Shown here: positions 26,360 through 32,785 of the stretch, piece by piece | Numbering within the stretch: the stretch's first letter is position 1 | Layout: each line of letters opens with the position of its first letter | Origin: an uncultured Victivallis sp. | GTDB taxonomy: Bacteria; Verrucomicrobiota; Lentisphaeria; Victivallales; GWF2-50-93 | Assembly (NCBI GenBank): GCA_964540865.1 | Contig: CAZION010000006.1 | Coordinates: 10,367-74,366, forward strand | DNA length: 64,000 nt | Reading direction: 5' to 3' | Program-made: the position numbers and the translations under genes | The notes under the pieces: model-generated | Database searches by the model: none | Seen by the model: the letters and a program-made list of their open reading frames with translations, nothing else | What the model was told of the DNA's origin: nothing

Positions 26360-27334
26360 ATGAGCAACATTGTCCAGTGCGAATTGTGTCCGCGGTATTG
26401 TATGATAAAACCGGGGCAGAGCGGTGAGTGCCGGGTCCGCGTGAACATGGACGGTTCCCTGAAGTCAGTTGTTTATGGATTCCCGTGCTCCGTGCACATT
26501 GATCCTGTAGAGAAGAAACCATGCTTCCATTTCCTGCCTGGGACAAAATCTCTTTCTTTGGCCACGGTCGGTTGTAATCTTCATTGCCTCAACTGCCAGA
26601 ACTGGGAGATATCCCAGGCCAATCCAGAGGATGGCGAGGCCTATTCACTTCTTCCGGATCAGGTTGTCGCAGCGGCAAAAAAATATGACTGCGCCTCCAT
26701 TTCATATACTTATACGGACCCGGTGGTCTTTTACGAATATGTCCTGGACACTGCGAAAATCGCAAAGCCGGAAGGGATAAGGAGCATTTTCGTGACCGCC
26801 GGCTACATAAATCCTGAACCCTGGAAGAATATCCTGAAATACATTGATGTGGCAAGGATAGACCTGAAGGGGTTCAATGAGGAGTTCTACCGGAAAGTAT
26901 CGAGCGCAACCCTTCAGCCTGTGCTTGATGCCATTGTCATGGCGAAAAAATCCGGTGTCCATGTTGAGATCATAAACCTTGTGATTCCTACATTGAATGA
27001 CAAGCCTGAGGAAATCAGGGACATGATGCGGTGGATAAAAACAAATGCGGGGGAGGATACTCCCGTCCATTTTTCCAGGTTCCACCCCCAGTACAAGATG
27101 AAGAACTTGCCGCCGACACCTGCGGAAACCCTTGATAACGCAAGGAAAATAGCGATGTCTGAAGGGCTTCAATATGTCTATATCGGAAACTTGTTGAGCA
27201 GGGAGGCGCAGAACACCTATTGTCCTTCCTGCAAGAAGCTGCTGATAGAAAGAAACGGCTATAACCTGCTTCAGAATAATGTGAAGGATGGACGCTGTTC
27301 ATGCGGAAAGCAGATACACGGGGTGTGGAAATGA
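26360..27334 (+). CDS. amrS: AmmeMemoRadiSam system radical SAM enzyme
   Basis: CELCPRYC, DPVEKKP, GCNLHCLNCQNWEISQ, HFSRFHP, YVYIGN, TYCPSC. Confidence 0.92.
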   Translation: MSNIVQCELCPRYCMIKPGQSGECRVRVNMDGSLKSVVYGFPCSVHIDPVEKKPCFHFLPGTKSLSLATVGCNLHCLNCQNWEISQANPEDGEAYSLLPDQVVAAAKKYDCASISYTYTDPVVFYEYVLDTAKIAKPEGIRSIFVTAGYINPEPWKNILKYIDVARIDLKGFNEEFYRKVSSATLQPVLDAIVMAKKSGVHVEIINLVIPTLNDKPEEIRDMMRWIKTNAGEDTPVHFSRFHPQYKMKNLPPTPAETLDNARKIAMSEGLQYVYIGNLLSREAQNTYCPSCKKLLIERNGYNLLQNNVKDGRCSCGKQIHGVWK

Positions 27335-27528
27335 AACGCAGGGATTTCATGATAAAATTTTCCGGAATCGCGCTTGGTGCAGCCTTTATATCCGGATTCT
27401 TTTGGGCCAGTGTGAAGTCAAAGGATGTTTACCGGAGATTTTTATATGCCGATAAGATGAAAAAATATCCAGGAAGGATAAAGCCCATGGGGGATGAAAT
27501 CAGAACTGAAGGCAAATGGAACGGGTGA
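27331..27528 (+). CDS. Small protein with twin-arginine-like signal
   Basis: MKRRDFMIKFSGIALGAAF; ATGA overlap with the amrS stop. Confidence 0.65.
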   Translation: MKRRDFMIKFSGIALGAAFISGFFWASVKSKDVYRRFLYADKMKKYPGRIKPMGDEIRTEGKWNG

Positions 27529-27634
27529 GTTGGGTTAGGCTGTAACTCCAACTTGTCCTTGTTAATTTTTCCGGGACGGAAAAATTTCCTTATTCTGAAA
27601 GCCTTGAAGTCTTGCAATATGATCGTATATTTGA

Positions 27635-27658
27635 ACAGACCAGTTTGACAGACCTGTT
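27635..27658. promoter_or_regulatory. Possible TA autorepression site
   Basis: Direct repeat acagaccagtt / acagacctgtt just upstream of the antitoxin RBS. Confidence 0.35.
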
Positions 27659-27676
27659 ATCTTAATGGAGGGTGCT

Positions 27677-27946
27677 ATGAAAACATATGGGGCTTTCGAG
27701 GCCAAGACTCATTTCTCCCAGTTGCTTGCGCTGGTGGAAAGCACCGGTGAGGAAATTCTCATACGGAAAAGGGGAAAGGGTGTGGCTGTGCTTATTCCTT
27801 ATGCGAAGAGAGATGATTCAGAGAGAGAAAGGAAGGCTCAGGAGATATTGAACAACTTCAAGATAATCCGGGAATCGCAGGCGGAATACAGATCTGCCGG
27901 GAAAATGACTGCTAAGGAAATGGTGAATTTCGGGAGGAAGAGATGA
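27677..27946 (+). CDS. Phd/YefM family antitoxin
   Basis: GAFEAKTHFSQLL...EILIRKRGKGVAVLIP. Confidence 0.88.
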   Translation: MKTYGAFEAKTHFSQLLALVESTGEEILIRKRGKGVAVLIPYAKRDDSERERKAQEILNNFKIIRESQAEYRSAGKMTAKEMVNFGRKR

Positions 27947-28386
27947 ACAGGAAAGTTGTAATTGATGCATCAGTTTCGGCTTCCTGGTTCCTGCATGACG
28001 AATTTAATCAGAAAGCCGACGAACTTCTGAAAGAGGTGATACATGGGAGAATTGACCTTTTCCAGCCGCTTCTTTGGAAATATGAGATTATAAATGTGCT
28101 TAGGACAGCCATCCTCCAAAAGAGAATTGCCAAGGACAAGGCGATGCTTGCTGTTTCAACTATAAACAGTATCAAGGTGGAATATATTGTTCCTGGCAAT
28201 GAAGACATGTTAAACTTGATGAGGATTGCAGATGAGAATTCCCTGACCGCATATGATGCATCCTATCTCCATACTGCCGAGATGAAATCAGGAGAGCTCT
28301 TTACGTCCGACAAGGATCTGCTTAAACTGAAGAATAAATATTCATTTGTCAGGAGGATTGATGAATTTACGGTAAAATATAATTGA
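27943..28386 (+). CDS. VapC-like PIN domain toxin
   Basis: VIDASVSASW, YEIINVL, LTAYDASYL, TSD; ATGA overlap with the antitoxin. Confidence 0.88.
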   Translation: MNRKVVIDASVSASWFLHDEFNQKADELLKEVIHGRIDLFQPLLWKYEIINVLRTAILQKRIAKDKAMLAVSTINSIKVEYIVPGNEDMLNLMRIADENSLTAYDASYLHTAEMKSGELFTSDKDLLKLKNKYSFVRRIDEFTVKYN

Positions 28387-28462
28387 GAAACTGCAGGCCA
28401 TCCTTTGCAAAGAAGCTAGGTCTTGGTAAATAGGAATGCCTGCTTTATTCAGGGGGAAGATC

Positions 28463-30073
28463 ATGAAGAAATCTCTTTTCTGCATCGTTGTTTTTCTGTT
28501 CTGTGTTTTTTTCTGTCTGGCAGAGACAGGAAAAAACTTCAAGTCCACGCTTGACGGGAAATGGTATCCTGCCGACCGTGCCGGGCTGACAAAACAGCTC
28601 TCCGAGCTGTACAAGGCTGCAGAGGCGGAAGAGTTGAAAGACGTCATAGCACTCATCCAGCCGCATGCGGGATATCAGTATTCCGGAAAAACTGCCTTCT
28701 GCGGACTCAAATCACTCGGGAAGAGCTATAAGAGAATTGTCATTTTGGGACCGTCACACACTATGCACATGACCAACATTCTCAGTGTGCCGAAATATGA
28801 CAGTTTCGAGACGCCTTTAGGAAGAGTTCCGATGGATGTGGAATTCATGGAGAAGCTCCTCAAGCATCCGAGCTTCAAGGATGCTCCGGAAGCCTTGACC
28901 AGGGAGCACAGCGTCCAGATCCAGGTGCCACTCCTTCAATACGCGTGGCAAATCCGAAACTCGAAATCCGAAATCCGAAACACTAGGGATAAACAGGCTG
29001 CCGCCGACGGACGACCGACGCCCCTCCTACGCCAAGGCTTCGAAGGGCAGGCTGACGCCTTCCCAAAAATAGTTTTCATCATCGCCGGGCAGTGTTCGAT
29101 GGACACGGTGAAGGATGCAGGTAAAATTTTGAGGGGACTTCTGGATGACGATACGCTTCTTCTGATAAGCTCGGATTTCACGCACTATGGAGATAATTAC
29201 GATTATTTCCCTTTCAAGGATGATGTGCCGGCAAAATTGAAGGAGCTTGACTTCGGCGCCTATGAAATGATCCGGAAAAAGGACGCAGAGGGATTCGGTA
29301 AATATATTGAGAAGACCGGAGACACCGTTTGCGGGTATGTTCCGATTGAAACGCTCCTTTCAATGCTGCCGGAAAATGCCTGCGCCGTGAAAACAGCTTA
29401 TACTACGTCAGGTGAGATCCTGAAGGATTACAGCAGTTCGGTGAGTTACTTTTCCATTGCATTTACCGGAAAATGGGGTGAACGCAAGGAACCGGAGGAG
29501 AAAAAGAAAACCGGCACGCTGTCTGCCGAAGATAAGAACACGCTTCTTTCACTTGCAAGAAAGACAATCGTATTTTATCTGGATAAACGGAAAATCCCGG
29601 AACCGTCTGATTTGGGCGTTGTATTGCCTGATGGGGTTAAAGAAGAGCGGGCTTGTTTTGTGACACTTAAGGAGAATGGTGAACTGCGCGGATGCATCGG
29701 CGAAATCTTCCCAGGTCAGCCATTGTATAAATCGGTCATTGTCCATGCCGTTGCGGCGGCCGTAAGGGATCCCCGTTTTGAGGCTGTCTCAAAAGATGAG
29801 GTCGGGAAGCTGTCTATTGAGATTTCCGCGCTGACTCCGCCACGGGGAGTTTCTTCGTACAAGGATATAAAAATCGGAACAGATGGAATGGTGCTTAAAA
29901 AAAGCATGCGTTCGGCTGTTTTCCTCCCTCAGGTAGCAACAGAGCAGGGATGGAGTCTCGAACAGACCCTTAGCGCCCTTTCCAGAAAGGCCGGACTTCC
30001 TGAGAATGCTTGGAAGGAAGGCGCAAGTTTCCTGACTTTCCAGGCGGAAGTGTTCGGTGAAGCTGATAAATGA
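28463..30073 (+). CDS. AmmeMemoRadiSam protein B (MEMO1) fused to protein A (AMMECR1), with signal peptide and in-frame repeat insertion
   Basis: WYP, PHAGYQYSG, GPSH, EHS, SSDFTHYG, TVCG; then CFVTL, LRGCIG, DPRF, FLPQV, KAG. Confidence 0.92.
   Translation: MKKSLFCIVVFLFCVFFCLAETGKNFKSTLDGKWYPADRAGLTKQLSELYKAAEAEELKDVIALIQPHAGYQYSGKTAFCGLKSLGKSYKRIVILGPSHTMHMTNILSVPKYDSFETPLGRVPMDVEFMEKLLKHPSFKDAPEALTREHSVQIQVPLLQYAWQIRNSKSEIRNTRDKQAAADGRPTPLLRQGFEGQADAFPKIVFIIAGQCSMDTVKDAGKILRGLLDDDTLLLISSDFTHYGDNYDYFPFKDDVPAKLKELDFGAYEMIRKKDAEGFGKYIEKTGDTVCGYVPIETLLSMLPENACAVKTAYTTSGEILKDYSSSVSYFSIAFTGKWGERKEPEEKKKTGTLSAEDKNTLLSLARKTIVFYLDKRKIPEPSDLGVVLPDGVKEERACFVTLKENGELRGCIGEIFPGQPLYKSVIVHAVAAAVRDPRFEAVSKDEVGKLSIEISALTPPRGVSSYKDIKIGTDGMVLKKSMRSAVFLPQVATEQGWSLEQTLSALSRKAGLPENAWKEGASFLTFQAEVFGEADK
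28949..29059 (+). repeat. Composite repeat insertion read in frame within the AmrB domain
   Basis: aaatccg aaactcg aaatccg aaatccg (28950-28977) and cctcctacgccaaggcttcgaagggcaggc (29023-29052). Confidence 0.8.
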
Positions 30074-30196
30074 GGCTGATTGTTGGCAAACACAAACTCC
30101 AAACAGGAAAAGTATAAGAACAGCCCTTGCGGGCTTGACTACGAACAGGAATTCGTTGGTAGTTAATGCCGCTAGGCATGTTCTTGGATTATCCAC

Positions 30197-32785
30197 ATGG
30201 TTCGGATCTTGATTATGGATAAACTCAAAAAAAACTTTGCATTGTTCTCGGTCGGGCTTTTTGCGATTGCATCGCAGACTCTGCTGTTCCGTGAATTCTT
30301 AAGCGCGTTTGAGAGCAATGACATTGCAGTCGGGATGTTTTTCGGATCCTGGTTCCTGTGGATAGCGTTTTCGGCATGGCTAAGCGTCAAGTTCGGGAAC
30401 TGTTTTGCGAAATTCGCAGACTGGACTCCGCTGATCATCCTGTCATATCTTCCGGCCTTCATCCTCCAGTATCTTCTGATTTTTAACATGCGAAAGTACG
30501 CCGGTGTCGAGGTGTATGAGCTTTTTCCGATTTGGAAGATGATGTTTTGGTCGCTGCTGGTAAACGCGCCGCTGAGTTTTGTGACAGGTTTTGTCTTTCC
30601 GCTTGCCTGCAGATGGTTCAGGGAGGCCGGAAGACTGCCGGTGGCTGATGTATATGTTTTTGAGTCTGTGGGGAGTTTTGCCGGAGGCCTTGCGGTTACT
30701 TTAATGCTCGTGAGCGGATTCAACACGTTTCTGGTGTTCTTTGTCATAGCATTTATTCTATCATCCTCTTTTTATTTTCTCAGGTTGAGAAATTATCCAG
30801 GCTTAGCCATTCCTCTAATTCTGATTTCCTTCATGGTCTTAAGGGTTGACGTAAAGCTCATTGAATCGGTAAGGAGCCTCAAATGGACCAAGCTGCTTCC
30901 GTCCGAGTCGTACAATGGCTCGTTCCAGACGGCGCAGGCGGAATATCTTTACGGTTCCTGTAACGGTCAATGGACGGTTTGCCGCGAAGGAAGCGCATGT
31001 GAGATTATGCCGGATCCGGAAAGCGCCTGGAAAATAATCGCCGTTCATCTTGCGCAGAATCCCAGGGCGGAAAAAGTGCTGGTCGTAGGTTCTGGTATGA
31101 ACCTCTGCCGTGAGATTCTGCGAATTCCGCAGATCACGGATCTGACATGGGCTCATTATGACAATGGATATGTATCTGAAATAAACAAATACATGCCATG
31201 GAATTTAAGGATCGACGACAAGCGTTTCCATCCCCTTGGGAAAGGTGACATAAGGGAATTCCTCGCAAATAAGAAAAACCATTATGATATTGTGATTGTC
31301 AATGTCCCGGATGTTACAACATCGATCCTGAACAGATATTTCACTTTGGAATTCAATGAGCTTGTAAAAAATTCAATTGCTGCAAACGGTCTGCTTGGGA
31401 TAAGACTGAGCGGCGGAGAGAATGTTATCGGACCCGAACTGGCATTTATCGGGGCGTCGGCGATGACAACTTTGGAAAAGACGTTCTCACATGTTGTAGT
31501 TGTTCCCGGAGATACCACCTGGTTGCTTGTCTCGGATTCATCGGGGCTTGAAGGCGATCCGGGGGTTCTCGTAAAGCGATTTGCGTCAAACAGGCAAGCC
31601 GCAGCCTTCTTTCCGCCGGAAGGGCTTTTGTCACTATATCTCCCCGACAGGGCGGAAGCCGCACTCGGGAAATATCGATCAGTCAAAATTCCTGGGACAA
31701 CACTTCTGAACACTGACGCCAATCCTCCGGCGTATCTTTTTGGACTGCTTTTTTCAGCAAGACAGTCGGGATTAGGGTTGACAAGCTTCATTGAAAAACT
31801 CCTGGGCAGTGGGATTGTTCTTCCGGCAATGCCGCTTGCATTGTTCGTCTTGCTTCTGGCACTTTATGTACTAGGGAAACGGTGCGAGAGGAGAACGAGT
31901 GGGGCTGTTTTAAGTGTCTGGGTGATATTCGGTGCAGGATTTGTAAGCATAGGAACGGTTATTGCGCTCATGTATCTTTTTCAGACCTGCCTGGGCTCCC
32001 TATATCTTAACGTCGGAGTCGTTTCAGCGGTTTTCATGCTGGGGCTTTCGGTTGGCGGGGCGCTTGGTAGATATCTTTTTGACGGAATGAAAATAGAATC
32101 AGGACTTCTGCTGGATTTCGCCGTGATTATCCATGCAGCGGTGCTGTTTTTAATATTGTATATTCCGATATCGGAATGGACATACATTTATTTCATACTG
32201 GCTTTTGCCTTGAGCGGGACGTGCAGCGGGTTTTATTTCCCAGCAGCAGCGTTCTTCCTGCGGGAATCAGGATATGATGAACTCAACTCAGGCGGCATTC
32301 TTGAAACTTCCGATCATATAGGTGCTGCACTCGGTGCGTTTATTTGCGGTGTCCTTGTCATACCGGTCTGGGGTGTTGCAGGCACTTTGATTTTCTTCGT
32401 GATATTCATGTTGTCCGTCATACCGGTTTCACTTCTCTGCAGGCATGGAAGCGTCTTTGCCGGGAATGATGATGCAGTTTTGAAATACAGGCGCTCAGTA
32501 TATTTCATCCTTATTGTTTTATTCCTGCTTTTAATAGGATACTCCGTGTGTAAATCTTATAGTTTATTCAGCTTTGGAAGCGGGGAGCATCCGGAGACGA
32601 AACAGCTCAGGCTGCCCCCCCTCGAGGCAAAAGCGGTCAAGCCGGTTCCTGAAAAAATTCTCGCCGATGATGATAGAATTGCGTCAGGTTCGCCACGGGA
32701 TCTGAACCTGGACAAAGTCAAGAAAATGATCAAGACCGGAAAACTTTCAGATAAAGAAGCAGAATTCTACAGGAAGATTGAGTAG
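30197..32785 (+). CDS. Membrane protein with central spermidine-synthase-like SAM-binding domain (start 30197 or 30215)
   Basis: Multi-TM N- and C-blocks (QTLLFRE, ESVGSFAGG, DHIGAALG); VLVVGSG, YDIVIVNVPD, NRYFTLEF, NTDANP. Confidence 0.8.
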   Translation: MVRILIMDKLKKNFALFSVGLFAIASQTLLFREFLSAFESNDIAVGMFFGSWFLWIAFSAWLSVKFGNCFAKFADWTPLIILSYLPAFILQYLLIFNMRKYAGVEVYELFPIWKMMFWSLLVNAPLSFVTGFVFPLACRWFREAGRLPVADVYVFESVGSFAGGLAVTLMLVSGFNTFLVFFVIAFILSSSFYFLRLRNYPGLAIPLILISFMVLRVDVKLIESVRSLKWTKLLPSESYNGSFQTAQAEYLYGSCNGQWTVCREGSACEIMPDPESAWKIIAVHLAQNPRAEKVLVVGSGMNLCREILRIPQITDLTWAHYDNGYVSEINKYMPWNLRIDDKRFHPLGKGDIREFLANKKNHYDIVIVNVPDVTTSILNRYFTLEFNELVKNSIAANGLLGIRLSGGENVIGPELAFIGASAMTTLEKTFSHVVVVPGDTTWLLVSDSSGLEGDPGVLVKRFASNRQAAAFFPPEGLLSLYLPDRAEAALGKYRSVKIPGTTLLNTDANPPAYLFGLLFSARQSGLGLTSFIEKLLGSGIVLPAMPLALFVLLLALYVLGKRCERRTSGAVLSVWVIFGAGFVSIGTVIALMYLFQTCLGSLYLNVGVVSAVFMLGLSVGGALGRYLFDGMKIESGLLLDFAVIIHAAVLFLILYIPISEWTYIYFILAFALSGTCSGFYFPAAAFFLRESGYDELNSGGILETSDHIGAALGAFICGVLVIPVWGVAGTLIFFVIFMLSVIPVSLLCRHGSVFAGNDDAVLKYRRSVYFILIVLFLLLIGYSVCKSYSLFSFGSGEHPETKQLRLPPLEAKAVKPVPEKILADDDRIASGSPRDLNLDKVKKMIKTGKLSDKEAEFYRKIE

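Follow-up and report, generated by a model that had tools for sequence, protein, structure and literature searches.

A predicted twin-arginine pilot peptide and a strand-bearing membrane partner of an AmmeMemoRadiSam enzyme in Victivallis

AmmeMemoRadiSam systems consist of the radical S-adenosylmethionine (SAM) enzyme AmrS, the Memo protein AmrB and the AMMECR1 protein AmrA. A role in RNA base modification has been proposed for them, and fusions of AmrB with AmrA have been described (PMC2034487). A variant of this system lies at positions 26,360 to 32,785 of a 64,000-nucleotide stretch of DNA from an uncultured Victivallis sp. (contig CAZION010000006.1), hereafter called the window. All three components score above the cut-offs of their family models and keep their motifs, and AmrB and AmrA are fused. 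Unlike in the described systems, the fusion protein (AmrBA) begins with a predicted signal, AmrS is headless, i.e., it lacks its N-terminal strand, a peptide of the twin-arginine translocation (Tat) type is encoded next to it, and a membrane partner bears the strand that AmrS is missing. The explanation favoured here, which we hold to be fairly probable from sequence comparisons and structural models, is that the peptide acts as a Tat pilot subunit for AmrS and the tail of the membrane partner as its docking site, in a Memo/AMMECR1/radical SAM pathway at the outer face of the membrane.

Hitchhiker export via the Tat pathway is established for NiFe hydrogenases and formate dehydrogenases (PMC10924467). 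As in those heterodimers, one partner at this locus carries the RR signal and a signal-less, cofactor-loaded partner would be co-exported. In contrast to them, the carrier is a cofactor-free peptide of ~60 amino acids (aa) with a radical SAM enzyme as its cargo, and the strand missing from the cargo is borne by a second protein. The small subunit of the [FeFe]-hydrogenase of Desulfovibrio forms a signal-bearing belt round the catalytic subunit; it came up in the Atlas as a weak lead (0.78). For AmrS itself, the nearest solved fold is that of the pyruvate formate-lyase (PFL)-activating enzyme (PDB 3CB8; TM 0.82 over the target, E 2.4e-15), which binds a Gly-containing peptide. It is also the nearest relative by sequence, residues 117-120 of AmrS aligning with its GGE motif. 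The two proteins differ in that the PFL-activating enzyme is shorter (244 residues) and shares 18% identity with AmrS, whose Cys-rich terminal parts lie outside the aligned region. The Gly on which the PFL-activating enzyme acts is found within the chain of a large cytoplasmic enzyme.

Term searches of PMC8238504, PMC10979944, PMC13673990 and PMC5449189 gave no mention of radical SAM, and passages of PMC6411480 and PMC7159879 contain no description of this arrangement. Full-text literature searches, judged by titles and abstract openings, yielded no description of an exported radical SAM enzyme or of a stand-alone pilot peptide for one. Radical SAM enzymes are regarded as cytoplasmic.

Headless AmrS and its twin-arginine peptide

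AmrS of the window matches TIGR04337 with 382.6 bits (cut-off 220), but the match begins only at profile position 12. The CxxxCxxC motif (C72/C76/C79), four-Cys sites at the N- and the C-terminus, and the invariant DPxEKKP are all present. The protein has neither a signal peptide nor the N-terminal EAxFY strand; the motif of this strand sits at the end of the membrane protein instead. Comparisons were made in the best 80 of 289 amrS loci of species-representative genomes, which belong mostly to Sedimentisphaerales/Phycisphaerae and Lentisphaeria and are close kin rather than independent samples. In 67 of them, AmrS is headless, defined as a start within a few residues of VQCxxCP, and in 13 it is headed. 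Headed proteins show [HR]EAx[FY][YW] shortly upstream of VQC. In the structure predicted by AlphaFold for one headed enzyme (pLDDT 94.6), the EAxFY region is ordered and includes a strand that, as judged from the order of the elements, would pair with the VQC strand. Eleven headed AmrS proteins bear a Tat-type signal of their own. Headed and headless enzymes have identical invariant pocket residues, and a quick tree of 93 AmrS cores places the 38 headless rows together in a single group (Shimodaira-Hasegawa-like approximate likelihood ratio 99; no bootstrap). A frameshifted or read-through upstream extension of amrS was rejected, because the upstream frame contains a stop, nothing in it resembles a signal, and the head is likewise missing at 67 related loci.

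The stop codon of amrS overlaps the start of the peptide open reading frame (ORF) in ATGA, and the peptide begins with K-R-R-D-F, which confirms the translational coupling to a 65-aa RRDF ORF reported in the first-pass annotation of this DNA. The peptide gene is single-copy, and its coupling is subunit-like. An intact RR...WxG peptide directly follows 61 of the 67 headless AmrS proteins and none of the 13 headed ones. Among the other six headless loci, two are at a contig edge, two have the peptide elsewhere, before amrBA, one has a peptide broken by N and one a peptide running into amrBA. At L090 (5106-5576), the RR N-terminus of the peptide continues in frame into the start of amrBA, through a deletion or an assembly error. 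The order amrS-peptide-amrBA-membrane gene is conserved across Lentisphaeria and Phycisphaerae. In 53 of the 80 loci, amrS is accompanied by the peptide, amrBA and the membrane gene, many of the others being cut by contig ends; the four genes thus stand together more often than chance would explain, and the association of the small ORF and the membrane gene with amr genes extends beyond the window.

A profile built from 50 peptides matched 394 representatives at E<=1e-3 and defines a stand-alone family of ~60 aa. In the best 150 of these matches, nearly all of which are 56-103 aa long and none of which is fused to AmrS, RRxF is retained in 136, and the median uncharged stretch is 16 residues. 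The terminal W-x-G is found, strictly C-terminal, in 145, and its W and G are invariant there. The family has no name in Pfam, NCBIfam or the Atlas; in the Atlas, matches were weak and the recognition value stayed below the mark. Among 301 genomes of the phylum, all 19 full-length matches to the profile lie directly behind a headless amrS. Twenty of the 24 weaker matches were retrieved; all are N-termini of longer proteins, 19 of them with RRxF. Among the 14 that were scanned are sulfatases and glycosidases, with a GH109 protein, a cellulase and an amidase. Thus, the N-terminus of the peptide resembles the Tat-type signals of the phylum. Of 50 family members, 14 match the Tat-signal model TIGR01409 and six match Pfam TAT_signal at E<=0.05. 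TatC was found in the genome of the window and in all 26 peptide genomes, against a background of 262/301.

The conserved FxxA of the peptide (A in 85% and F in 46% of 144 peptides) may resemble the missing strand in reverse, a likeness read from conservation. For the forward direction, a strand matrix was built from 27 headed AmrS proteins, with the 99th percentile of 1293 control C-termini as threshold. None of 50 peptides exceeded it, and the window peptide scored -8.0. The possibility that the peptide is a detached N-terminus of AmrS with a forward strand was rejected on this ground and because no protein of AmrS length bears the peptide among the best 150 matches.

Predicted binding of the peptide to AmrS

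AmrS was co-folded with residues 26-65 of the peptide, SAM and a 4Fe-4S cluster, using own alignments and ligands. The pair scored 0.89, versus 0.01 for the best control; runs agreed in at least 86% of the contacts, and the pLDDT of the partner was at least 69. Among solved complexes, 116 of 157 come up to the mark that was applied, as do 2 of 215 mismatched pairs; these counts hold only roughly when own alignments and ligands are used. The model supports binding of the peptide to AmrS, where it would cover the vacant edge of the sheet and reach the active-site region. The best predicted contacts are those of F37 and A40 with AmrS residues 6-9, 27, 34-36 and 125-126, which form the sheet edge at the place of the missing strand, whilst Y46 and I50 would contact residues 37, 41 and 94-95. 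Further contact residues are 56-65 of the peptide and 44-54, 66, 68, 80-84, 115-118 and 145-154 of AmrS; pairing them by elimination would place the C-terminus of the peptide in the barrel. Position 41 of AmrS, the predicted contact of Y46, is F or Y in 60/64 peptide-associated enzymes versus 1/10 peptide-less and 1/51 headed ones. Interface columns, 53 of 319 in total, are enriched in the comparison with peptide-less enzymes, where they account for 8 of the top 20 columns (p 0.009, kin not corrected).

The same contacts bear on another possibility raised in the first-pass annotation, i.e., that the peptide is the substrate of AmrS. Its middle part would then be a leader bound on the N-terminal sheet, AmrS would modify the WxG end, for example by hydrogen abstraction at Gly, and Memo, AMMECR1 and the membrane domain would finish the product outside. 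The invariance of the terminal W and G would suit this role, and residues 63-65 of the peptide and 44-54, 66, 68, 80-81, 115-118 and 145 of AmrS are all among the predicted contacts, although their pairing again goes by elimination. Moreover, the nearest relatives of AmrS in fold and sequence are glycyl-radical activases. However, headed AmrS has the same invariant pocket residues without such a peptide, the signal-bearing amrS genes examined have none either, the single-copy peptide is coupled in the manner of a subunit, and the YPG segment is missing from some peptides. As discussed below, loss of the peptide also leaves AmrS and AmrBA in place. A substrate role for the peptide, in the manner of a RiPP precursor of a radical SAM enzyme, appears unlikely.

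The membrane partner and its tail

The gene behind amrBA, for which position 30215 is a second candidate start, was earlier noted to encode a multi-transmembrane protein with a spermidine-synthase-like SAM fold. This is borne out by a match to Pfam Spermine_synth (31.3 bits, cut-off 22.9) and by a structural model (pLDDT 86, pTM 0.84) with seven helices, a spermidine-synthase-fold domain, eight helices and a tail. With the loops assigned from this model, the average of K+R is 21.4 over 122 inner-loop residues versus 3.0 over 65 outer ones; by these positive-inside counts, both the SAM-type domain and the tail are predicted to be outside. In the long relatives of the membrane partner, the final one of these helices leads to an FMN (flavin mononucleotide)-binding domain, a type of domain described as extracytosolic (PMC8238504); an outer position of the SAM-type domain and the tail is in line with this.

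In an alignment of 64 rows, the adenosyl-binding residues of the domain are kept (motif-I Gly in 62, the acidic residue after strand 2 in all 64 and the adenine-binding Asp in 63). In contrast, the Asp of GGGDG that binds decarboxylated SAM is replaced, by M in the window and by L35, I5, G5, M4 and F4 among the rows, and the Asp of the catalytic loop, equivalent to D173, is N in the window and in 44 rows. With both of these residues replaced, the earlier suggestion of an aminopropyltransferase-like function is not supported. Spermidine synthase activity was likewise rejected: the domain shares the fold and the adenosyl-binding residues of spermidine synthases and of the 'fused MFS/spermidine synthase' family NF037959, but it remains far below the SpeE cut-offs, scores 12.2 bits on NF037959 (cut-off 40), and lacks the key Asp. 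A D103I substitution in spermidine synthase abolished activity and conferred weak methyl transfer (PMC3725402). The SAM-type domain probably binds SAM or one of its by-products, and a methyltransferase role is still conceivable. One relative of the membrane partner showed similarity to MFS_1 below the cut-off (E 4e-4).

An FMN_bind plus Fer4_5 module, as in flavinylated electron-transfer proteins of the NapH-like kind (PMC8238504), is present in 37 of 45 complete membrane partners, but it is absent from the window copy and from the rows of its genus in the 64-row alignment. Fusions of the partner with AmrS (P0164, P0239 and P0161) have an internal RRxFL helix, which in myxococcal-type fusions precedes AmrS and is comparable to the dual Sec-Tat targeting of the NapH-NapG polyferredoxin (PMC5449189). 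The fusions P0142 and P0143 are without an RR motif.

The absence of the module could also mean that the locus is decaying in this genus, where it would have lost the electron module by deletion and received a toxin-antitoxin (TA) pair by insertion. Such decay would be in line with the genus rows without FMN/Fer4 module, with the state of the TA pair, which is intact, partial or absent among members of the genus, and with the lack of an FMN_bind match in the genome of the window. Against it stand the open reading frames, all of which are intact and keep the catalytic motifs, and the presence of the membrane gene in 9 of 9 genomes of the genus that were searched, including its own. Identity in the other eight is 47-79%, and the tail is retained wherever the gene is complete. 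Decay is regarded as very improbable.

The tail motif is found in 44 of the 45 complete membrane genes and in 14 of 21 unselected C-termini of membrane proteins. Of 48 tails, 45 exceed the threshold of the strand matrix, a result that is partly built in, since the tails were excised by a pattern containing the motif; the result for the peptides is free of this bias. When the tail profile was compared with 240 AmrS proteins, the best match (E 2.4e-4) was the junction of a natural fusion between a membrane domain and AmrS (P0144); in this fusion and in that of L155, the tail motif leads straight into AmrS. Co-occurrence was assessed at 60 amrS loci, taken by score band from 150 listed of 180 matches. 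Where headless AmrS occurs together with the peptide, the tail profile matched 23 of 26 genomes, as against none of 10 with headless AmrS alone and none of 20 with a signal-bearing or membrane-fused headed enzyme; a 24th tail match (G327) fell outside the set. The tail is often encoded on a different contig from headless amrS and the peptide, its sequence has diverged in G303 and G260, and in L037 and L039 it is a separate small membrane protein.

Several side observations concern relatives of these proteins. An AmrS with a hydrophobic signal is found beside a DsbD_2 (CcdA-like) membrane protein, or AmrS is fused to such a protein, in L103, L106, L107, L112-L115 and L119 and in L155, P0122, P0123, P0144 and P0145; this partner is possibly an alternative electron conduit (Pfam assignments were confirmed in L103 and L155). 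An unnamed protein follows the membrane gene in genus g5 and one of its relatives (L036:4229-6006, L037:12621-14350, L039:263-1701). A Kdo/WaaP-family kinase is also encoded downstream of it in L036 and L037, possibly a link with lipopolysaccharide. P0124-P0140 have CBM_11/CIA30-like domains fused in front of AmrS, and P0124 also begins with a hydrophobic segment; these fusions may hint at a carbohydrate-type envelope substrate. The AmrS proteins P0121, P0141, P0155 and P0157, of ~800-850 aa, match PF14528/PF14890, which we take to be LAGLIDADG and intein families; two of them have Tat-like N-termini.

The features of the locus are listed in Table 1. The first-pass annotation had described it as a four-gene AmmeMemoRadiSam locus; the gene set stands, but a Phd/PIN pair (27665-28386) separates the peptide gene from amrBA. 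L028 and L045 have the whole pair, L021, L023 and L024 only a remnant of the antitoxin, and L025 and L029 nothing of it. The pair was rejected as a component of the system because of this patchy occurrence within the genus. Elsewhere in the same genome, unlinked and signal-less AmrS, AmrB and AmrA are encoded, as is TatC, and the set of the window is therefore a second, specialized copy. The signal-less set is found at L042 (G000:C56), G000:C52 and G000:C24, and its AmrS, of ~300 aa, is without the C-terminal Cys cluster.

Table 1. Genes and predicted features of the locus (positions in the window)
Feature	Position	Strand	Description	Basis
amrS	26360..27334	+	324-aa headless radical SAM enzyme	library match, motifs, tree
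Twin-arginine peptide ORF	27331..27528	+	65 aa; RRxF, uncharged stretch, FxxA, YPG, terminal WxG; predicted Tat pilot subunit	
Phd/YefM antitoxin	27665..27946	+	inserted passenger	library match
PIN-domain (VapC-like) toxin	27943..28386	+	same type II pair	library match
AmrB(Memo)-AmrA(AMMECR1) fusion	28463..30073	+	536 aa	library matches, motifs
Signal peptide of AmrBA	28463..28522	+	predicted, Sec-type	hydropathy and conservation
Membrane partner	30197..32785	+	862 aa; 15 predicted helices (7 + 8) around spermidine-synthase-fold domain	
SAM-type domain of membrane partner	30845..31816	+	predicted outer face	adenosyl-binding acids kept, aminopropyl-transfer Asp replaced
C-terminal tail of membrane partner	32666..32782	+	helix and LSxxEAxFY; predicted outer face	homologous to strand AmrS lacks

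Joint loss of export features and a possible mechanism

AmrBA of the window passes TIGR04336 (188.7 bits, cut-off 26) and TIGR04335 (166.6 bits, cut-off 99). Its Memo part contains the His/Asp/Cys motifs, which we take to be those of the family, and its AmrA part contains RGCIG at 409 and DPRF at 436, corresponding to the described AMMECR1 motifs RGChG and DxRa (PMC2034487). The Sec-like signal that had been noted at its start is predicted here as well, from a basic and strongly hydrophobic 20-mer (Kyte-Doolittle 2.48 over residues 5-23), and a hydrophobic N-terminus of AmrBA is conserved in 68 of 72 peptide loci. An in-frame insert of ~40 aa in the Memo domain (window 28950-29065) begins with short AAATCCGA-type repeats. 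A 10-mer of this insert has 95 copies in the genome versus ~14 expected from length alone, and the insert looks like a small repeat element within the coding sequence.

Ten genomes contain a headless AmrS without an adjoining peptide, and a genome-wide search with the peptide profile gave no full-length match in them. In eight of these, the AmrBA orthologue is signal-less, and in G307 it was not found as a fusion. The membrane protein was found in none of the eight peptide-less genomes tested, whereas the same query matched G329 and G330. Thus, the export features vanish together with the peptide while the enzymes stay, which fits a carrier better than a substrate; since AmrS and AmrBA persist after the peptide is lost, the export carrier is favoured over the substrate. 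Genus g96 (L131, L136, L139, L150, L163, L165) has headless AmrS and no peptide, a signal-less AmrBA in 5 of 6 cases and the membrane partner in none of 4 tested; the system of this lineage seems to have become cytoplasmic again. In L139 and L150, amrS is located near dnaA/dnaN.

A number of observations weigh against the proposed export by the peptide. The window peptide itself gave no match to any curated Tat-signal model, and an AxA site is present in only 43 of 134 family members. In genomes G020 and G178 (loci L159 and L164), an AmrS with a hydrophobic anchor occurs without a TatC match, which is hard to reconcile with the view that every signal-bearing AmrS is exported and is not explained by export via Tat alone. 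The correlated loss has its exceptions: G231 lost the peptide and retains a signal-like start of AmrBA, and no tail was found in the peptide genomes G032, G039 and G121. Furthermore, all peptide losses fall in one 10-row subclade of the quick tree and may represent only one to three events. The 10 genomes in question have retained headless AmrS although they have neither peptide nor tail; the enzyme can thus be kept in the absence of the strand. Compared with headed enzymes, the interface columns are not enriched (4/20, p 0.43). Part of the co-folding result may be memory, because a like complex, that of the PFL-activating enzyme with a peptide (18% identity), has been solved. Finally, FMN_bind had no match in this genome, which is 89% complete, so that electrons would have to come from another source; separate Fer4_5 proteins are present.

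Some of these observations would also fit an AmrS that remains in the cytoplasm, tethered to the inner face of the membrane by the N-terminal helix of the peptide, with its product moved by the transporter-like partner to exported AmrBA and with the tail as a relic of an old fusion. Both SAM and the reductant are cytoplasmic, the Tat models do not recognise the window peptide, two genomes encode an AmrS with a hydrophobic anchor but gave no match to TatC, and there are fusions without an RR motif. Nevertheless, RRxF is retained in most peptides, and Tat-type signals occur directly on headed AmrS. The near-universal tail, as discussed above, persists even as a separate small membrane protein, and it accompanies headless AmrS even when unlinked. 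A tether at the inner face is considered improbable, slightly more so than the substrate role.

Both the envelope location and the role of the peptide as a hitchhiking export carrier, as put forward in the first-pass annotation, are supported by the conservation, the correlated loss and the co-folding result. According to the favoured explanation, AmrS would receive its clusters in the cytoplasm, where the co-translated peptide would occupy the vacant sheet edge and shield the active site in transit. The peptide would then take the folded Fe-S enzyme through the Tat pathway. Outside, the tail would provide the true strand and keep AmrS beside the SAM-type domain and next to AmrBA, itself probably exported via Sec. 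The membrane partner may serve as a hub for the supply or handling of SAM and of adenosyl by-products, a tentative proposal; in most relatives, electrons would arrive via the FMN/NapH-like module, and this genus must use another donor. It is possible, with similarly limited confidence, that AmrS, Memo and AMMECR1 act sequentially on an anionic envelope substrate gripped by the invariant lysines of DPxEKKP, and the carboxylate of the WxG terminus would mimic such a substrate bound there. A more speculative version of the favoured explanation, which we would not rate as probable, is an exchange of strands: the reversed FxxA of the pilot peptide would stand in for the strand that headless AmrS lacks while its WxG end blocks the active site, and after export the true EAxFY strand would displace the pilot, thus unplugging AmrS and docking it by the SAM-delivering domain and, in most relatives, the electron conduit, to allow periplasmic radical SAM chemistry.

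If the favoured explanation is correct, radical SAM chemistry would take place in an unexpected compartment. The 324-aa enzyme, the 65-aa peptide and the 39-aa tail form a small testable unit with which to ask if SAM radical chemistry can proceed beyond the cytoplasm and by what route SAM and electrons would arrive there. If the WxG terminus is a substrate mimic, it would be a direct lead to the ligand of the invariant DPxEKKP pocket in all AmrS enzymes. An outer location argues against an RNA substrate and, if true, would bear on the long-open function of Memo/AMMECR1/radical SAM systems, pointing this branch away from RNA modification.

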